This document shows positions 9,837 to 36,041 of a stretch of 36,041 nt of DNA, piece by piece. Position 1 is the stretch's first letter. Each line of letters begins with the position of its first letter. The stretch is from Gemmatimonadota bacterium (GTDB taxonomy: Bacteria > Gemmatimonadota > Gemmatimonadetes > Gemmatimonadales > GWC2-71-9). Where the stretch lies: positions 1 through 36,041 of the forward strand of contig JANLXK010000506.1 of assembly GCA_031365045.1 (NCBI GenBank), given 5' to 3'. The notes below the pieces were generated by a model, which saw nothing but the letters and a program-made list of their open reading frames with translations, ran no database searches and had not been told where the DNA came from. The translations under genes and the position numbers were made by a program.

Positions 9837-9870
9837 CCGGGTGACCGGTGACCGGTGACCGGTGACCGGC
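9837..9870. repeat. Tandem heptamer (GTGACCG)x4
   Basis: Four perfect units at 9841-9868, 24 nt after the HEAT gene stop. Same unit family as the arms at 33764-33944. Confidence 0.9.
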
Positions 9871-9956
9871 GAAGGAAACCGACAATTCAGCGATGTCACC
9901 CCGAGCGGAGCGAGGGACCTGCTCATCACCGGCCAGATACCTCACTTCGTTCGGCC

Positions 9957-22088: not shown

Positions 22089-22304
22089 ATGCGCTGGACC
22101 ACCGCCCGGATGGATCAACTCGAACGCGCGATCCGCGATGGCCTCCGCATCTCCCTGATGCGCCGGGGGTCGGAGCATATCGTCGTGGCGCGACGGCTCA
22201 CCACGGTGGGGTCGCGCGATGCGGTGATCGGCCTGGTGCCGATGACCGGCGCGGAACTCACGTTCGTGCTGGACGATGTCGAGGATTTCCAGTTGCTTGG
22301 TTGA
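22089..22304 (+). CDS. Hypothetical small protein (71 aa)
   Basis: ORF with genome-typical codon bias. No family recognised. Confidence 0.45.
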   Translation: MRWTTARMDQLERAIRDGLRISLMRRGSEHIVVARRLTTVGSRDAVIGLVPMTGAELTFVLDDVEDFQLLG

Positions 22305-22305
22305 G

Positions 22306-22435
22306 GGTCGTTGGTGAAAGGTCGTTGGTCATTGGTCATTTGCCTTTGATCGCTAGAATTATCTCCTTCACACCCTGCCCCGGTCGAATGCCGCACTCCA
22401 CCATCGCCTCGACCAATGACCAACGACCAATGACC
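22306..22435. repeat. Inverted heptamer arrays (GGTCRTT)n / (AAYGACC)n
   Basis: Left array 22306-22340, right array 22411-22435. The core is a perfect 18-bp complement: GGTCGTTGGTCATTGGTC (22320-22337) against GACCAATGACCAACGACC (22411-22428). The spacer is 73 nt. The right arm contains the rnhA ATG (22430). Confidence 0.9.
22332..22359 (+). promoter_or_regulatory. Candidate sigma-70-type promoter TTGGTC-N16-TAGAAT
   Basis: Read directly. The -35 falls in the left repeat arm and the -10 in the lower-GC spacer, about 70 nt upstream of rnhA. Confidence 0.35.
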
Positions 22436-23065
22436 GCTGCCTCGACCACCCCGATCGCCGTCATCCACCTCGACGAATCCTGCCTTGGCAATGGACAGGA
22501 AGGCGCCACCCCCGGGGGTGCCGGTGGGATCATCGAACTCCGCCACGGTGCGGGGATCGAGCGCCGCGACTTCTGGCTGAGCTCCCCCGACACGACCAAC
22601 AACCGGATGGCGCTGGCCGGGGCGACCGCGCTGCTCCGGATCCTGGCCGCCAAGGGACACCGGTTCCGGCTCCTCGCCATCTCCGACTCACAATATCTGG
22701 TGAAAGGGATCCGCGAGTGGCTGCCGGGGTGGGTCGCCAAAGGGTGGCGACGGCAGGCGGGGCCGATCGAGAACCTGGAGATGTGGCAGGAACTGCACGC
22801 CGCGCTCCGGCTCCACGACGCCAGCTGGTCGTGGGTGCGGGGACATCAGGGGCACCCGAAGAACGAGTATGCCAACGACCTGGCCGTCCGCGCCGCGAAG
22901 GAGCAGACCAGGGGGGACGGCGGCGCGGAGAGCGAATTCGCAGACTGGCTCGCGGCCGAGTGCGCCAGGAAGCGGTATGTGGGGTATGACCCGGACGCGG
23001 CGTTCGTCGCGCTCGAGACGAGGCTCCGGGAGGGGGCGCTGATCCCGCTGGCGTTGAAGGAGTAG
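22430..23065 (+). CDS. rnhA: Ribonuclease HI with a C-terminal extension
   Basis: IHLDESCLGNG (catalytic D/E region), ISDSQY and VRGHQGHPKNEYANDLA. The upstream in-frame ATG at 22388 would only add repeat-encoded residues (STNDQRP). Confidence 0.85.
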   Translation: MTAASTTPIAVIHLDESCLGNGQEGATPGGAGGIIELRHGAGIERRDFWLSSPDTTNNRMALAGATALLRILAAKGHRFRLLAISDSQYLVKGIREWLPGWVAKGWRRQAGPIENLEMWQELHAALRLHDASWSWVRGHQGHPKNEYANDLAVRAAKEQTRGDGGAESEFADWLAAECARKRYVGYDPDAAFVALETRLREGALIPLALKE

Positions 23066-28694: not shown

Positions 28695-28790
28695 GTCATT
28701 GGTCGTTGGTCATTGGTCGTTGGTCGTTGGTATTCGATGAGAGGACCATGAAGTGTACGGGGAGGGGCCAATGACCAATGACGAACGACC
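28695..28790. repeat. Inverted heptamer arrays (GGTCRTT)x5 / (AAYGACS)n, same unit family as 22306-22435
   Basis: Left array 28695-28731, right array 28766-28790. The best register gives 22 Watson-Crick pairs, 2 G-U pairs (plus-strand RNA only) and 1 mismatch over 25 nt. The right arm contains the hbd ATG (28771). Confidence 0.9.
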
Positions 28791-29664
28791 GAGTGCCTTC
28801 AAGACCATTGCAGTCATAGGGACCGGACAGATGGGGGCCGGGATCGCGCAGGCCTGCGCCGCCACCGGCGCCCACGTGATCGCGGTCGACCCCGACCACG
28901 CCCAGCGGGAGCGGGCCAAGCTCGGGATCGGGAAGTCGCTCGCCAAGCTGGCCGAGAAGGGGCTGGTGCATGATCCAGCGGGGATCGAGGCGCGGATCAA
29001 ATTCTCGGCCAAGATCGACGACGCCGAGCCGGCCGACCTGGTCATCGAAGCGATCGTCGAGGATATGGCGGCCAAGCGGGCGCTCTGGGAAGAGCTCGAC
29101 GTGATCTGCCCTCCCGACACGATCTTCGCGACCAACACCTCGAGTCTCTCGGTGGGAGAGCAGGCGGCCGCGACCGACCGCGCGGCAGCGTTCCTCGGTC
29201 TCCACTTCTTCAACCCGGTGCCGATGATGGCGCTGGTGGAGGTCGTCAGCACCGACGCGCTCGACCCGAAGGTGCTGGGGCGGGCCATCGCGCTGGTCCG
29301 CACGATGGGGAAGACCCCGGTCCTGGCGCAGGACACGCCGGGATTCGTGGTGAACCGGCTCCTGGTGCCGTACCTGCTCGATGCCGCCCGCGCGGCCGAG
29401 GCCAAGGTGGCGACCACCACCGACCTCGACGCCGGGATGAAGCTCGGCGCCGGCCACCCGATGGGGCCGCTGATGCTTCTCGACTTCGTGGGGATCGACA
29501 CCGTGGTGCGGATCGCCGACATTTTCCATCGCGCCTTCAAGGAGGAGCGTCACCGCGCCCCCGCGATCCTGACCGCGATGGTGGGTCGGGGAGAGCTCGG
29601 GAGGAAATCGGGGAAGGGATTCTACGATTGGACCGGGAAGGAACCGGTGGCGAGGCCGCTCTGA
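28771..29664 (+). CDS. 3-hydroxybutyryl-CoA / 3-hydroxyacyl-CoA dehydrogenase
   Basis: IAVIGTGQMGAGIAQ Rossmann motif, FATNTSSLS, HFFNP and a C-terminal 3HCDH domain. GGGGAGGGG lies upstream of the ATG at 28771. The GTG at 28753 is the longest-ORF alternative. Confidence 0.9.
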   Translation: MTNDERPSAFKTIAVIGTGQMGAGIAQACAATGAHVIAVDPDHAQRERAKLGIGKSLAKLAEKGLVHDPAGIEARIKFSAKIDDAEPADLVIEAIVEDMAAKRALWEELDVICPPDTIFATNTSSLSVGEQAAATDRAAAFLGLHFFNPVPMMALVEVVSTDALDPKVLGRAIALVRTMGKTPVLAQDTPGFVVNRLLVPYLLDAARAAEAKVATTTDLDAGMKLGAGHPMGPLMLLDFVGIDTVVRIADIFHRAFKEERHRAPAILTAMVGRGELGRKSGKGFYDWTGKEPVARPL

Positions 29665-32930: not shown

Positions 32931-33002
32931 GCGTGTTGGGTTTTGGGTGGTGTGTCATCACCCGCCCGCACCCCAACACTCAACACACAACACGCAACAC
33001 CC
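32931..33002. repeat. G/T-rich heptamers (GCGTGTT GGGTTTT GGGTGGT ...) facing A/C-rich heptamers (AACACTC AACACAC AACACGC AACACCC)
   Basis: Read directly. Complementary segments are GTGTTGGG/CCCAACAC and GGGTG/CACCC. Lies between the oxidase stop and the thyX start. Confidence 0.75.
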
Positions 33003-33009
33003 ACGGGCC

Positions 33010-33762
33010 ATGGAACGCATCTACTCCCCCACCGTCACCCTCCTCGCCAACCCCGCCTTCCATGAGCCGGCGCATCTGCCCGTGCACTGGAAGGATCCGG
33101 GCACCGACGGCGAGAAGCTCGCGGAGTTCGCCGGCCGGCTCTGCTACATGAGCCAGCACAACCCGGCCGAGCGCTCGACGGCCGAATATTTGACGAACAT
33201 CCTGAAGCAGGGGCACGGGTCGGTGTTCGAGCACTCGACCTACGTCCTCCTGCTCGAGGGGATCAGCCGGAGCTGCACCCACGAGCTGGTGCGGCACCGG
33301 GCGGGGTTCGGGTACAGCCAGCTCTCCCAGCGCTACGTGGATGAGAGCCGGGCGGCCTACGTCGTCCCGCCGGCGATCATCGGGGACCAGGCGCTGGAGG
33401 GGGCGTGGGCGGCCCAGATGGAATCGGCGCACGCCACCTACGTCGCCCAAGTCGAGGGACTGATGCAGAGATATGCATCGGTCGAGAACAAGATCCATCG
33501 GCGCAAGATGTCCCGGGAGGCGGCGCGGAGCGTCCTGCCCAACGCCACCGAGACCAAGATCGTGGTGAGCGCGAACCTCCGCGCCTGGCGCACGATGCTC
33601 GAACTCCGCCTCGGCGAGGGCGCAGAACTCGAGATCCGCCGCGTAGCAGTGGCGATCCTCGGCGTGTTGAAGGGCCAGGCGCCCGCACTCTTCGCCGATT
33701 TCGAGCTGTACGATGCACCGGACGGGACGAAAGCGGGGAAGGCCGGGTTCCACAAAGTGTGA
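33010..33762 (+). CDS. thyX: Flavin-dependent thymidylate synthase
   Basis: 250 aa. HGSVFEH, then RHRAGFGYSQLSQRY (ThyX signature region) and NLRAWRTMLELR. Confidence 0.9.
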   Translation: MERIYSPTVTLLANPAFHEPAHLPVHWKDPGTDGEKLAEFAGRLCYMSQHNPAERSTAEYLTNILKQGHGSVFEHSTYVLLLEGISRSCTHELVRHRAGFGYSQLSQRYVDESRAAYVVPPAIIGDQALEGAWAAQMESAHATYVAQVEGLMQRYASVENKIHRRKMSREAARSVLPNATETKIVVSANLRAWRTMLELRLGEGAELEIRRVAVAILGVLKGQAPALFADFELYDAPDGTKAGKAGFHKV

Positions 33763-33763
33763 G

Positions 33764-33944
33764 CGGTGACCGGTGACCAGTGACCGGGCCCCGATCGACC
33801 TTGATCGATGTCATCCGACCCTCCGACTCGACGCTGAGTGGAGGGTCGGACTCTTTTTTCCTCGAACGTCGATGAAATGGGGATCCGAAGGACACCGAAA
33901 TGCTCATTTCATCGCCCGGTCACCGGTCACTGGTCACTGGTCAC
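33764..33944. repeat. 181-nt composite element: heptamer arms (GTGACCR)n / (YGGTCAC)n enclosing two hairpins
   Basis: Left arm 33764-33788, right arm 33915-33944 (22 of 25 positions Watson-Crick). The interior holds the terminator at 33815-33860 and a 10-bp hairpin CGATGAAATG (33870-33879) / CATTTCATCG (33905-33914) that abuts the right arm. Confidence 0.9.
33815..33860 (+). terminator. Rho-independent terminator of thyX
   Basis: CCGACCCTCC (33815-33824) pairs with GGAGGGTCGG (33840-33849). The stem extends by ACTC/GAGT. It is followed by ACTCTTTTTTCC (T6). Confidence 0.85.
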
Positions 33945-34128
33945 AGAAAAACTCGTGCCACGAACTTGAAAAAAACTATTGCACCTTTGTCGGATATTTC
34001 TTAACTTGGTATCAGGAATTCGTCCGCGATGCTCGGCTCGCCTCCGCCAGGCGACTTTTTTGTAAGAGGATTTTCTGGGAATACGGATCGGACTAGCATA
34101 CAATCTCAAACCCGATGCGCCGGCCGCC

Positions 34129-35172
34129 GTGGCCGGGGCAGGATCCGATTCCCCCTCAGCTGACCCTCGCGCCCTTCGCTCCGACCTCGCCCAACCCGAC
34201 CTCTACGCCGAATGGGATGAGCCCGCTACCGTCGATGCGGTGGCCGCCGCCCTCGCCACCCTCGGCGAAGTGATCCGCCTCGAAGCCGACCAGTCCTTCC
34301 CTGAAAAGCTCCGCGCCGCCCGCCCCGACTTCGTCTTCAACATCGCCGAGGGGCTCTACGGCGTGAACCGCGAAGGCCACGTCCCGGCCATCTGCGAGTT
34401 CTACGGTATCCCCTGCCACGCCTCCGACCCCCTGACCTTGGCGCTCTGCCTCCACAAGGGGCGGACCAAGGAGATCCTGGCCCAGCGCGGCGTCCCGACG
34501 GCCCCGTTCGTGGTCGTGACCACCGCGGCCGAGGCCCGGAACGTCTCCCTCTCCTTCCCGCTCTTCGCCAAGCCGGCGTTCGAGGGGAGCGGCAAGGGGG
34601 TCAGCGTGAAGTCGCTCTGCCACCATAGAGGGGAGCTGGTGACCCAGGTCGAGCACCTCCTCGCCACGTACGACCAGCCGGTGGTGATCGAGAGCTACCT
34701 CTCCGGGCAGGAGTTCACAGTGGCAGTGATCGGGAACGGTGAAGAGGCCCGCTGCCTTCCGCTCGTGTCGTTCCGGTTCGACACGCTGCCCCCCGGTGCT
34801 CCGCCGGTCTATGGATACGAGGCGAAGTGGCTCTGGGACACGATCGAGAACCCGCTCGACATCTTCCAGTGCCCCGCCCCGGTCTCCGATGCCCTGGCCG
34901 AGCAGGTCCGGTCCGCGGCGTTGGCGGCCTACCGGGCGCTCGACTGCCGTGACTGGTGCCGGATCGACGTCCGCTGCGACGGCGCCGGCTCGCCGATGGT
35001 GGTGGAGCTGAACCCGCTCCCCGGCATTCTCCCGAACCCGCTCGACAATTCCTGCTTTCCCAAGGCGGCCCGTGCCGCGGGGATGACCTATGACGACCTG
35101 ATCCGGACGGTGGCCGACCTCGCGTGGCGCCGTATCAGTGGTCGGTCGCTCCTCCAGGAGGCGCGCGCATGA
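34129..35172 (+). CDS. D-alanine--D-alanine ligase-family ATP-grasp protein
   Basis: 347 aa. FNIAEGLYGVNREGHVPAICEFYGIPCHASDP, KGRTKEIL, FAKPAFEGSGKGV, VVIESYLSGQEFTV and RIDVRCDG...VVELNPLPG. The GTG start is uncertain. Confidence 0.85.
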   Translation: MAGAGSDSPSADPRALRSDLAQPDLYAEWDEPATVDAVAAALATLGEVIRLEADQSFPEKLRAARPDFVFNIAEGLYGVNREGHVPAICEFYGIPCHASDPLTLALCLHKGRTKEILAQRGVPTAPFVVVTTAAEARNVSLSFPLFAKPAFEGSGKGVSVKSLCHHRGELVTQVEHLLATYDQPVVIESYLSGQEFTVAVIGNGEEARCLPLVSFRFDTLPPGAPPVYGYEAKWLWDTIENPLDIFQCPAPVSDALAEQVRSAALAAYRALDCRDWCRIDVRCDGAGSPMVVELNPLPGILPNPLDNSCFPKAARAAGMTYDDLIRTVADLAWRRISGRSLLQEARA

Positions 35173-36041
35173 AGGTCGTGATCCTGTATGACCCGGGCGG
35201 CCCGCACTGGGACAAGAAGGACGTGGCCCAGGTGGCGGAGAGCGCGGAGGACATCCGCGACTGCCTGAAGGTCAAGGGACACCAGGTCGGGCTGCTGCCG
35301 ATCCGGCTCGGCGACTTCACCTGGATCGCCAAGGCCCGGAAGGCCGATGTGATCTTCAACCTCTGCGAAGGGCTCGACGGCCACTCCAAGTACGAGGACT
35401 ACGTCGTCGGGACCCTCGAGCTGATGGGAGTGCCCTACACCGGGTGCCGCCAATGGCCGGTCACGGTCTGCCACCGGAAGCACATCGCCAACACCCTGAT
35501 GGAGTCGGCGGGGATCCCGATCCCCCGCTCCGTCATGGCTCATTCGAACAGCCGCATCCCGATGGACTTCCCCCTCCCGGCCATCGTGAAGCCGGCGGCG
35601 GAGGACGCCTCCCTCGGCATCGATGCCGGGGCGGTCTGCACCAGCCGCCGGAGCCTCCGGAAGCGGCTGGCCGAGCAGCTGGAGCAGTGGGACGAGGTGC
35701 TGATCCAACAGTACGTGCCGGGGCGGGAGTTCAACGTCGGATTCGTCGGCAAGGAAGTGCTCCCGATGTCGGAGATCTGCTTCGACAACATGCCGGAGGG
35801 GAGCTGGCCGATCCTCACCTACGCCGCGAAGTGGGACGAGGGGAGCCCGGAAGATCTGGGTTCCATCCCCATCTGCCCGGCCGAGGTGAACGCCGAGACG
35901 GCCCGAAAGATCGTGGCGGTGGCGCGCCAGGCCTGGGAGCTGGTGTCGGGGGGCGAGGGGTACGGCCGGGTGGACCTCCGGCTCGATCCTGAAGGGCGCC
36001 CCTGGGTGCTCGAGGTGAATCCCAACCCCGACCTGAGCGAC
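35169..36041 (+). CDS. Second D-Ala-D-Ala ligase-family ATP-grasp protein (3'-truncated by the window end)
   Basis: Not in the supplied ORF track; translated by hand. The ATG overlaps the previous TGA (ATGA). MKVVILYDPGG...FNLCEGLDGHSKYEDYVVGTLELMGVPYTG...IVKPAAEDASLGI...LIQQYVPGREFNVGF...GRVDLRLDPEGRPWVLEVNPNPDLSD. The frame is open for 291 codons to the last base. Confidence 0.85.
   Translation, partial: MKVVILYDPGGPHWDKKDVAQVAESAEDIRDCLKVKGHQVGLLPIRLGDFTWIAKARKADVIFNLCEGLDGHSKYEDYVVGTLELMGVPYTGCRQWPVTVCHRKHIANTLMESAGIPIPRSVMAHSNSRIPMDFPLPAIVKPAAEDASLGIDAGAVCTSRRSLRKRLAEQLEQWDEVLIQQYVPGREFNVGFVGKEVLPMSEICFDNMPEGSWPILTYAAKWDEGSPEDLGSIPICPAEVNAETARKIVAVARQAWELVSGGEGYGRVDLRLDPEGRPWVLEVNPNPDLSD

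Follow-up and report, generated by a model that had tools for sequence, protein, structure and literature searches.

A tandem-heptamer palindrome at the 3' end of thyX in a Gemmatimonadota bacterium is a large copy of a dispersed, fast-evolving class of intergenic repeats

Inverted pairs of intergenic heptamer arrays have been described in Xanthomonas campestris and X. axonopodis, in which arrays of GGGAATC form 70-75 convergent pairs per genome, one array on each strand, that are able to fold into stem-loops or cruciforms (Rehm et al., 2015, PMC4692102). Between Xanthomonas species the repeat type (single array or inverted pair) is usually preserved and the array length differs; formation of G-quadruplexes by their unit has been proposed (PMC4692102). 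A second group of related elements are the repetitive extragenic palindromic (REP) sequences and their hairpin-forming doublets (REPINs), which are studied together with the REP-associated tyrosine transposases (RAYTs) (Bertels and Rainey, 2011, PMC3116915; PMC3733652; PMC8266576). Heptanucleotide repeats are also known from cyanobacteria as short tandemly repeated repetitive (STRR) sequences, and long prokaryotic simple sequence repeats (SSRs) of 5-11 nt have been described as well (cited in PMC4692102); the arrays of Nostoc are mostly single with few pairs (Rehm et al., PMC4692102). Here a module of this kind is described at the 3' end of thyX, which encodes a flavin-dependent thymidylate synthase, in a soil-dwelling Gemmatimonadota bacterium. 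The DNA that was analysed, referred to as the window, is a stretch of 36,041 nucleotides (contig JANLXK010000506.1 of assembly GCA_031365045.1); it is contig C523 of a metagenome-assembled genome (MAG) of 2.79 Mb in 567 contigs (G000), and the relatives used for comparison are labelled Gemmatimonadales. The module is one large copy of a dispersed, fast-evolving class of intergenic palindromes with arms made of tandem arrays, and as such a variant of a known repeat class (the Xanthomonas GGGAATC pairs, REPIN-like). Confidence in this assignment to a class is much higher than in the mechanism. No paper on such repeats in Gemmatimonadota was found in the literature.

The likeness to the Xanthomonas pairs covers the intergenic tandem heptamers, the two convergent arrays, the architecture and the polarity. 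Unlike Xanthomonas, which uses essentially one G-rich unit, about 65 unit families occur here, and the unit at thyX, GTGACCG, has no run of two or more G inside it apart from the GG at the junction between units. The G-quadruplex hypothesis therefore cannot apply. Two further differences are that orthologous loci change their unit family from one genome of the genus to another, and that copies of the GTGACC family are built around a fixed core with GATC at its centre. With the REPs and REPINs the elements share their short, high-copy and palindromic nature in intergenic DNA, the inverted doublets that form long hairpins, a family composition that differs between related genomes, and possible roles of the kind proposed for REPs in termination and mRNA stability. 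They differ from these in that the arms are tandem heptamer arrays instead of a single imperfect palindrome and in that many unit families coexist. Besides, the tetranucleotide tag GTAG or CGTC that marks REPs (PMC3733652) was absent from the 19 copies listed, which begin with GTGA and end with TCAC. Unlike in Nostoc, about a fifth of the arrays regularly form pairs with a core between them, in a different phylum and a G+C-rich genome. The resemblance to the cyanobacterial STRR sequences and long SSRs lies in the over-representation of tandem heptanucleotides in intergenic DNA.

The module at the 3' end of thyX

The coding sequence of thyX was taken from the list of open reading frames (32947-33762, plus strand; Pfam Thy1 PF02511, E 2.4e-54), and the module lies between it and a ddl-like gene. 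The first-pass annotation of this DNA had described the module as a pair of heptamer arms that close over a terminator hairpin with a T6 tract and a perfect 10-bp hairpin, a description that repeat searches and RNA folding showed to be correct. The start had been set at 33764, which cuts off a first, diverged unit; the array begins at 33759, so that the stop codon TGA (33760-33762) is located inside the first heptamer. The left arm thus consists of the four tandem heptamers GTGAGCG, GTGACCG, GTGACCA and GTGACCG (33759-33786, plus strand), the outermost of which has the form that is seen throughout the left arm in the relatives L009/G004, L002, L003 and L005. The right arm consists of the four inverted heptamers CGGTCAC, CGGTCAC, TGGTCAC and TGGTCAC (33917-33944). 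A GGC at 33787-33789, the invariant first interior triplet of the family, extends the outer stem by pairing with the GCC at 33914-33916 that closes the interior. An inverted-repeat search returned arms of 32 nt that are 88% complementary and 124 nt apart. Tandem Repeats Finder (TRF) and the repeat search gave 4.1 unit copies per arm, that is, more than three tandem 7-nt copies in intergenic DNA. With at most one mismatch, GTGACCNGTGACC matched the window nine times where 0.29 matches were expected. The second GTGACCG site noted earlier at 9841-9868 is present, but as an unpaired array.

The interior contains three hairpins. A small and weak one is formed by two GATCGA words in the RNAfold structures (33793-33808) and is not conserved in relatives. 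It is followed by the Rho-independent terminator of thyX (33814-33859), with a G+C-rich stem of 15-16 bp (33814-33850), a CTC and a T6 tract (33854-33859). Its hairpin starts 52 nt past the stop codon and has a folding energy of -28.5 kcal/mol (z -4.7), and the T6 begins 4 nt past the stem. All sequence features of such a terminator are present; a strict consensus scanner missed it owing to the limits that it sets on tail and loop. The outer arms are no part of the terminator. The second hairpin (33870-33914) has a perfect 10-bp stem, CGATGAAATG/CATTTCATCG, in which 33870-33879 pairs with 33905-33914, and a 25-nt loop with GGATCC (-17.6 kcal/mol, z -2.5). It is single-copy and abuts the GCC that closes the right arm. 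The plus-strand RNA of the whole module folds at -112 kcal/mol as compared with -67.9 +/- 4.2 for shuffled sequences (z -10.5), and the minus-strand RNA at -105 kcal/mol (z -8.2). The interior folded alone accounts for only -52 of the -112 kcal/mol, which means that more than half of the fold energy is supplied by the arms. The module is a genuine feature, very stable and well beyond chance expectation. An assembly artefact was considered and rejected, as the arrays measure 28 nt, are located in the interior of a 36-kb contig and belong to an architecture that recurs in independent assemblies.

A genome-wide class of tandem-armed hairpins

Heptamers stand out among the tandem repeats of the genome. 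Exact arrays of at least three copies numbered 176 for period 7, as compared with 12-40 for each of the periods 4, 5, 6, 8 and 10, a single one for period 9 and none for periods 11 and 12. A tolerant scan found 294 heptamer arrays in 65 unit families. An inverted partner was present within 350 nt downstream of 167 out of 764 loose period-7/8 arrays, against 2 in control windows 1.5 kb away. After de-duplication 165 hairpins with tandem 7- or 8-nt arms remained, with a median length of 100 nt and arms mostly of three to four units; its length places the thyX copy at the 93rd percentile. In all 29 inverted pairs that were listed genome-wide the array richer in G or purine forms the 5' arm, a polarity that does not change when the strand is flipped.

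The thyX module belongs to the genus-specific GTGACCN family. Inverted pairs of GTGACC or GTGAGC units occupy at least 19 loci in the genome, and their usual form is four units, a core of about 30 nt (GGC-N10-GATC-N10-GCC) and four inverted units. Among eight tabulated interiors of exactly 30 nt, GGC at positions 1-3 and GCC at 28-30 were invariant, and GATC stood at 14-17 in seven and GATT in the eighth. The N10 parts are unrelated between copies, and the seventh position of the unit is variable and often mismatched between the arms. In the thyX copy the GGC and GCC are retained, and the core has been replaced or expanded to an interior of 130 nt that holds the thyX terminator and the second hairpin. 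The central GATC was also considered as a feature of the whole class and rejected; GATC is 1.3-fold enriched overall and central only in the GTGACC/GTGAGC family.

Gene contexts, and the strand test described below, were obtained with a crude gene caller of our own, based on G+C content at third codon positions (GC3), that covered 74% of the genome. Co-directional genes flank 75 elements, convergent genes 31 and divergent genes 11, and 5 elements lie inside a gene. Convergent settings make up 26% of the classified elements and 13% of the gene pairs, an enrichment of about twofold. Roughly half of the flanks on a stop-codon side have an array that begins between -5 and +10 nt from the stop; on start-codon sides the figure is 13%. 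A hairpin with a T-run inside the arms occurs in only 16 of the 145 elements that have an interior of at least 25 nt. Arms that close over a terminator were therefore rejected as the general design, being a minority arrangement. The idea that the whole element acts as a terminator was rejected likewise, since a T-run almost never follows the outer arm; none is present 3' of the right arm at thyX.

Several contigs of the MAG end in heptamer arrays, most visibly in long (GCGACCC)n arrays. Such ends were seen at C485:8002-8057 (of 8058), C545:3-58, C446:16679-16706 (of 16740), C424:11721-11748 (of 11753) and C491:19148-19175 (of 19194).

Turnover and unit switching at orthologous sites

The 3' site of thyX is hypervariable. 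The flanks of the module align at 90-100% with two same-genus genomes in which ThyX is 95-97% identical, and the module itself is unalignable; in a blastn comparison of the whole window with the syntenic contigs of these genomes, the alignment is interrupted precisely at the module and at the other elements of the window. The relative with a ThyX identity of 97% (L001/G006) has arms of GAGTGAG/AAGTGAG and its own hairpin with TTTCTT, and 3' of this new AGTGAGG-type element it carries a degenerate GGTCAC remnant (ACCGGTCGGGTCATCCGTCACC). At 95% identity (L009/G004) the arms are GTGAGCG, and the terminator is made up of the last unit on the left, GGGC...GCCC, one unit on the right and a T6. Within the module, orthology between this genome and G000 seems confined to the T6 and some 15 nt that follow it. 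The sole locus of 90% identity from metagenomes (L081), which has a short flank, shows GTGAGAG-type arms with its own hairpin and T-run.

The survey was extended to 90 distinct thyX loci across the order. The site is empty at 20 of these, where the stop codon is 15-17 nt away from a conserved promoter-like motif, and 49 have a long inverted repeat. In 28 of the 49 the arms are periodic, with 20 different units (period 7 in 23, period 8 in 3 and period 9 in 2). On the ThyX tree at least seven changes between an empty and a filled site are required. The empty sites read GTGTGAGCA or GTGTGAGAA (L016, L013), close to the GTGAG-type units of filled sites, and the native gene end GTGTGAG likewise resembles such units. 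At this site TAGTC-type units are frequent in lineages whose thyX ends in TAG, and GTGAG-type units in lineages with TGA. A similar observation was made at C161 and C306 of G000 and the orthologous L196-L203, where the gene ends in TAG and the arrays in three same-genus genomes start at that stop with the unrelated 8-mers CGCACGGA, GCGCTGGG and GGCGGACA.

The sampling of orthologous sites covered about 30 loci and two to four genomes. Nearly every element of G000 was matched at the orthologous site of the same-genus genomes by a tandem-armed hairpin with a different unit, and a few sites were empty. Matches to three units with at most one mismatch numbered, for GTGACC, 98 in G000, 60 in G004, 17 in G006 and 9 in G002, with almost none outside the genus (0-3 per genome). 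For GTGAGC the numbers were 10, 97, 30 and 67 in the same order, and outside the genus 166 in G020, 25 in G015, 8 in G030 and at most 3 in a few others. When 16 elements of G006 were mapped back onto G000, four of the five GTGACC loci had remained GTGACC, two of them (C289, C140) with conserved interiors. None of the eleven GTGAGC loci was GTGAGC in G000; four were GTGACC on both arms, five belonged to other families and two were not arrays. Together with thyX and C306:6813 (both compared with G004) this amounts to at least six orthologous loci with a G-to-C change on both arms. At the switched loci G000 has GTGACC where its relatives have GTGAGC, in every unit of both arms; in the left arm at thyX the outermost unit remains GTGAGCG despite the switch, as expected if homogenization is weakest at the edges of an array. 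Such a parallel switch is not plausible by independent mutation, and an inter-locus process is required. Ectopic conversion, replacement by family members and a trans-acting factor may each be that process, and the data do not distinguish between them.

Upstream of rnhA (window 22290-22448) G000 has an element with GGTCATT/GACCAAT arms (22306-22435) that the same-genus G004 lacks. There the site measures only 22 nt, and the rnhA start seems to overlap the preceding stop codon (TCATGACC). The right arm of the G000 element, (GACCAAT)n, ends in the ATGACC of the native rnhA start. The unit thus resembles a tandem duplication of that native sequence, which suggests that units may be seeded locally. 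A non-periodic, REP-like palindrome (GTCACCCYGAGCGRAGCGAGGGA followed by its inverted copy) lies at 9896-9920 of the window. It recurs in L110, L087, L062 and L075, and in G004 and G006 at the site orthologous to window positions 28695-28793; in several genomes a palindrome of this type is found within heptamer-armed hairpins or in their place.

The gene context of the module is ordinary. Upstream of thyX lies a gene for an FAD-linked oxidase (flavin adenine dinucleotide; PF02913/PF01565), and downstream two consecutive ATP-grasp genes of the D-Ala-D-Ala-ligase type (PF07478) occupy 34129-36041. Between the module and the ddl-like gene a non-coding block (33973-34140) is conserved across 85 distinct Gemmatimonadales loci. 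It starts with a promoter-like CTATTGYRC-N17-TTCTTACTTTAG (TTGCAC at 33979-33984, TAACTT at 34002-34007), which is followed by about 40 variable nucleotides, a conserved terminator (34038-34054, with T6 at 34056-34061) and a second promoter-like TTGGCA-N18-TWCAAT (TACAAT at 34099-34104) with an almost invariant spacer (GTTCGGATCGGACT). The last component is an invariant hairpin (GCGCCGGC-loop-GCCGGGGC) that precedes the ddl-like gene. It has no match in Rfam and shows no covariation because its stems are invariant. The block could be a tiny small RNA, or a leader, plus a regulated promoter.

Origin and possible role of the arms

The first-pass annotation had proposed that the module folds as a three-way junction and could be a structured non-coding RNA. 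For a dedicated riboregulator of the thyX locus speak the predicted multi-stem fold and its z-score only. A search of the whole window against Rfam 15 gave no match at the gathering score, and at E<=5 a single match at chance level (E=1, 18 bits versus a cut-off of 40.6). The interior (33788-33915, 128 nt) and each of the sub-hairpins returned only chance matches in blastn-short searches of the genome (best E for the interior 0.25) and nothing beyond chance in the thyX loci of 80 relatives; the interior is single-copy and not conserved, two of the three outcomes that the first-pass annotation had named as refuting its proposal. Neither sequence conservation nor covariation of the module was found, even within the genus. 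Moreover, the fold energy comes mostly from repeat arms that are common to 19 or more other loci, and the module has no promoter of its own. We regard a dedicated RNA as having next to no probability. The suggested switch, in which closure of the outer stem would compete with or reinforce termination, fails already because of the order in which its elements are transcribed. The T-tract precedes the right arm by 57 nt, and this arm has not yet been made when the terminator acts, so that the outer stem cannot influence termination; an RNA truncated at the T6 folds the terminator with or without the left arm. Transcripts of thyX would end at the internal T6 and carry the left array only, and the outer stem of about 31 bp could close only in read-through RNA, or in single-stranded or cruciform DNA. 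We infer that the outer stem plays no regulatory part that is specific to this locus. A more general role in RNA would be that of a hairpin under selection, which as a barrier to 3' exonucleases or as an RNase III site in read-through RNA would shield thyX from the promoter region that follows, in the manner of enterobacterial REP elements. The very stable fold agrees with this, as do the presence of some long hairpin at the site in most lineages despite sequence turnover, the enrichment between convergent genes and the abutment on stop codons. Arms were aligned without a bonus for G-U, and transition mismatches were counted in the elements between co-directional genes. G-U pairs in sense RNA numbered 65 and in antisense RNA 69 (p 0.8), with a split of 24 versus 26 when the bias was scored per element. 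There is thus no sense-strand excess of G-U over A-C mismatches, and the two G-U pairs pointed out in the first-pass annotation carry no weight. No sign of pairing maintained in the transcribed strand is present, which fits a symmetric process at the DNA level. As the terminator precedes the right arm, most transcripts should lack that arm; elements also lie between divergent genes and inside genes, and the seventh unit position is often mismatched. A hairpin selected in RNA is on balance decidedly unlikely.

The earlier proposal of a miniature mobile element was borne out in part. The arms do belong to a dispersed and genus-restricted family with a copy number that varies between genomes; the multi-copy interior expected of a miniature inverted-repeat transposable element (MITE) is lacking, as the BLASTN check on the genome and the relatives showed. 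The corresponding explanation is a REPIN- or MITE-like non-autonomous element, mobilized in trans by a putative enzyme, that inserted at the 3' end of thyX or replaced an element there, with the terminator and the second hairpin as cargo or later insertions. It would account for the stereotyped architecture of the dispersed family, the strongly different copy numbers in genomes of one genus, the absence of the family outside it and the empty sites in relatives. The degenerate GGTCAC remnant beside the new element of L001/G006 also agrees with it, and the copies at C289 and C140, conserved with their interiors between G000 and G006, behave like stable insertions. Internal sequence is not shared as it is in MITEs, the canonical copies having only GGC, GATC and GCC in common and unrelated N10 parts. 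In the 25-nt flanks of 19 copies, inspected by eye only, no direct repeats that could be target-site duplications were apparent. Units often look locally seeded (from ATGACC to GACCAAT at rnhA and from GTGTGAG to the GTGAG type at thyX). As to the enzyme, five genes with a Y1_Tnp domain (PF01797, RAYT/IS200-like) are present in the genome, at C3:6012-6287, C331:4630-4863, C33:546-887, C66:1380-1712 and C440:8717-8947. No heptamer array or tandem-armed hairpin was found within 1.5 kb of any of these. Unlike the arrangement of REPs with their RAYTs, the flanks of most carry other, ordinary multi-copy G+C-rich REP palindromes such as GGGCGGGCCTTTCAGGCCCGCC and CCGAGGGGCGGCCGCCTCGGCCGCCC, which are a repeat system separate from the heptamer hairpins, and the link of the latter to RAYTs was rejected. 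Mobilization of this type is considered unlikely. A further possibility is that the arms are written and rewritten, in 7-nt steps and on intergenic palindromes genome-wide, by a dedicated trans-acting system, for which a recombinase or nuclease with sequence specificity or a templated polymerase could be considered. If this were true, a change of specificity or template would explain the conversion of GTGAGC into GTGACC at the six or more orthologous loci, and the fixed four plus four units with the central GATC core would be explained as well. We consider such a system very unlikely.

The explanation that we favour, with an overall confidence somewhat better than even, is that the arms are kept complementary by concerted evolution at the DNA level and not by selection on RNA. 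Slippage would homogenize the units within an array. The complementarity of the arms would be maintained by template switching from one arm to the other (quasipalindrome correction), a recognized route of mutation (PMC7202029). An inter-locus process, either ectopic conversion or replacement by family members, would then spread a unit variant over many loci. Several observations weigh against concerted evolution as the whole explanation. Nearly all orthologous sites retain some tandem-armed hairpin despite the replacement of its sequence, and this retention, together with the placement of arms at -5 to +10 nt from the stop codon at about half of the stop-side flanks, could reflect selection for structure instead of a purely mutational origin. 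The four plus four units around an exact 30-nt core with GATC look more like a recognized element or binding site than like the product of free slippage. Conversion between arms of 28 nt is hypothetical, and the replacement of whole elements would give the same pattern. A role in RNA for read-through transcripts may be compatible with the strand result, and both this test and the context statistics rest on the crude gene caller, with its coverage of 74% of the genome.

As to its meaning, the single thyX module is ordinary for this genome and adds no RNA gene or riboswitch. The extreme folding z-scores of such repeats can mislead searches for structured RNAs. The repeats also break assemblies, as many contigs of the MAG end in arrays, and they probably contribute to the fragmentation of this assembly. 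Elements of this class take up a large part of the intergenic sites in Gemmatimonadales, and at orthologous positions they turn over more quickly than their flanking DNA diverges. Within a single genus the repeat unit has changed in parallel on both arms at several loci, which independent mutation would hardly produce. This pattern raises the question whether a process of concerted evolution or copying exists for short palindromic repeats in bacteria apart from the RAYT/REP system, and whether it is at the level of DNA or of RNA that such hairpins function.

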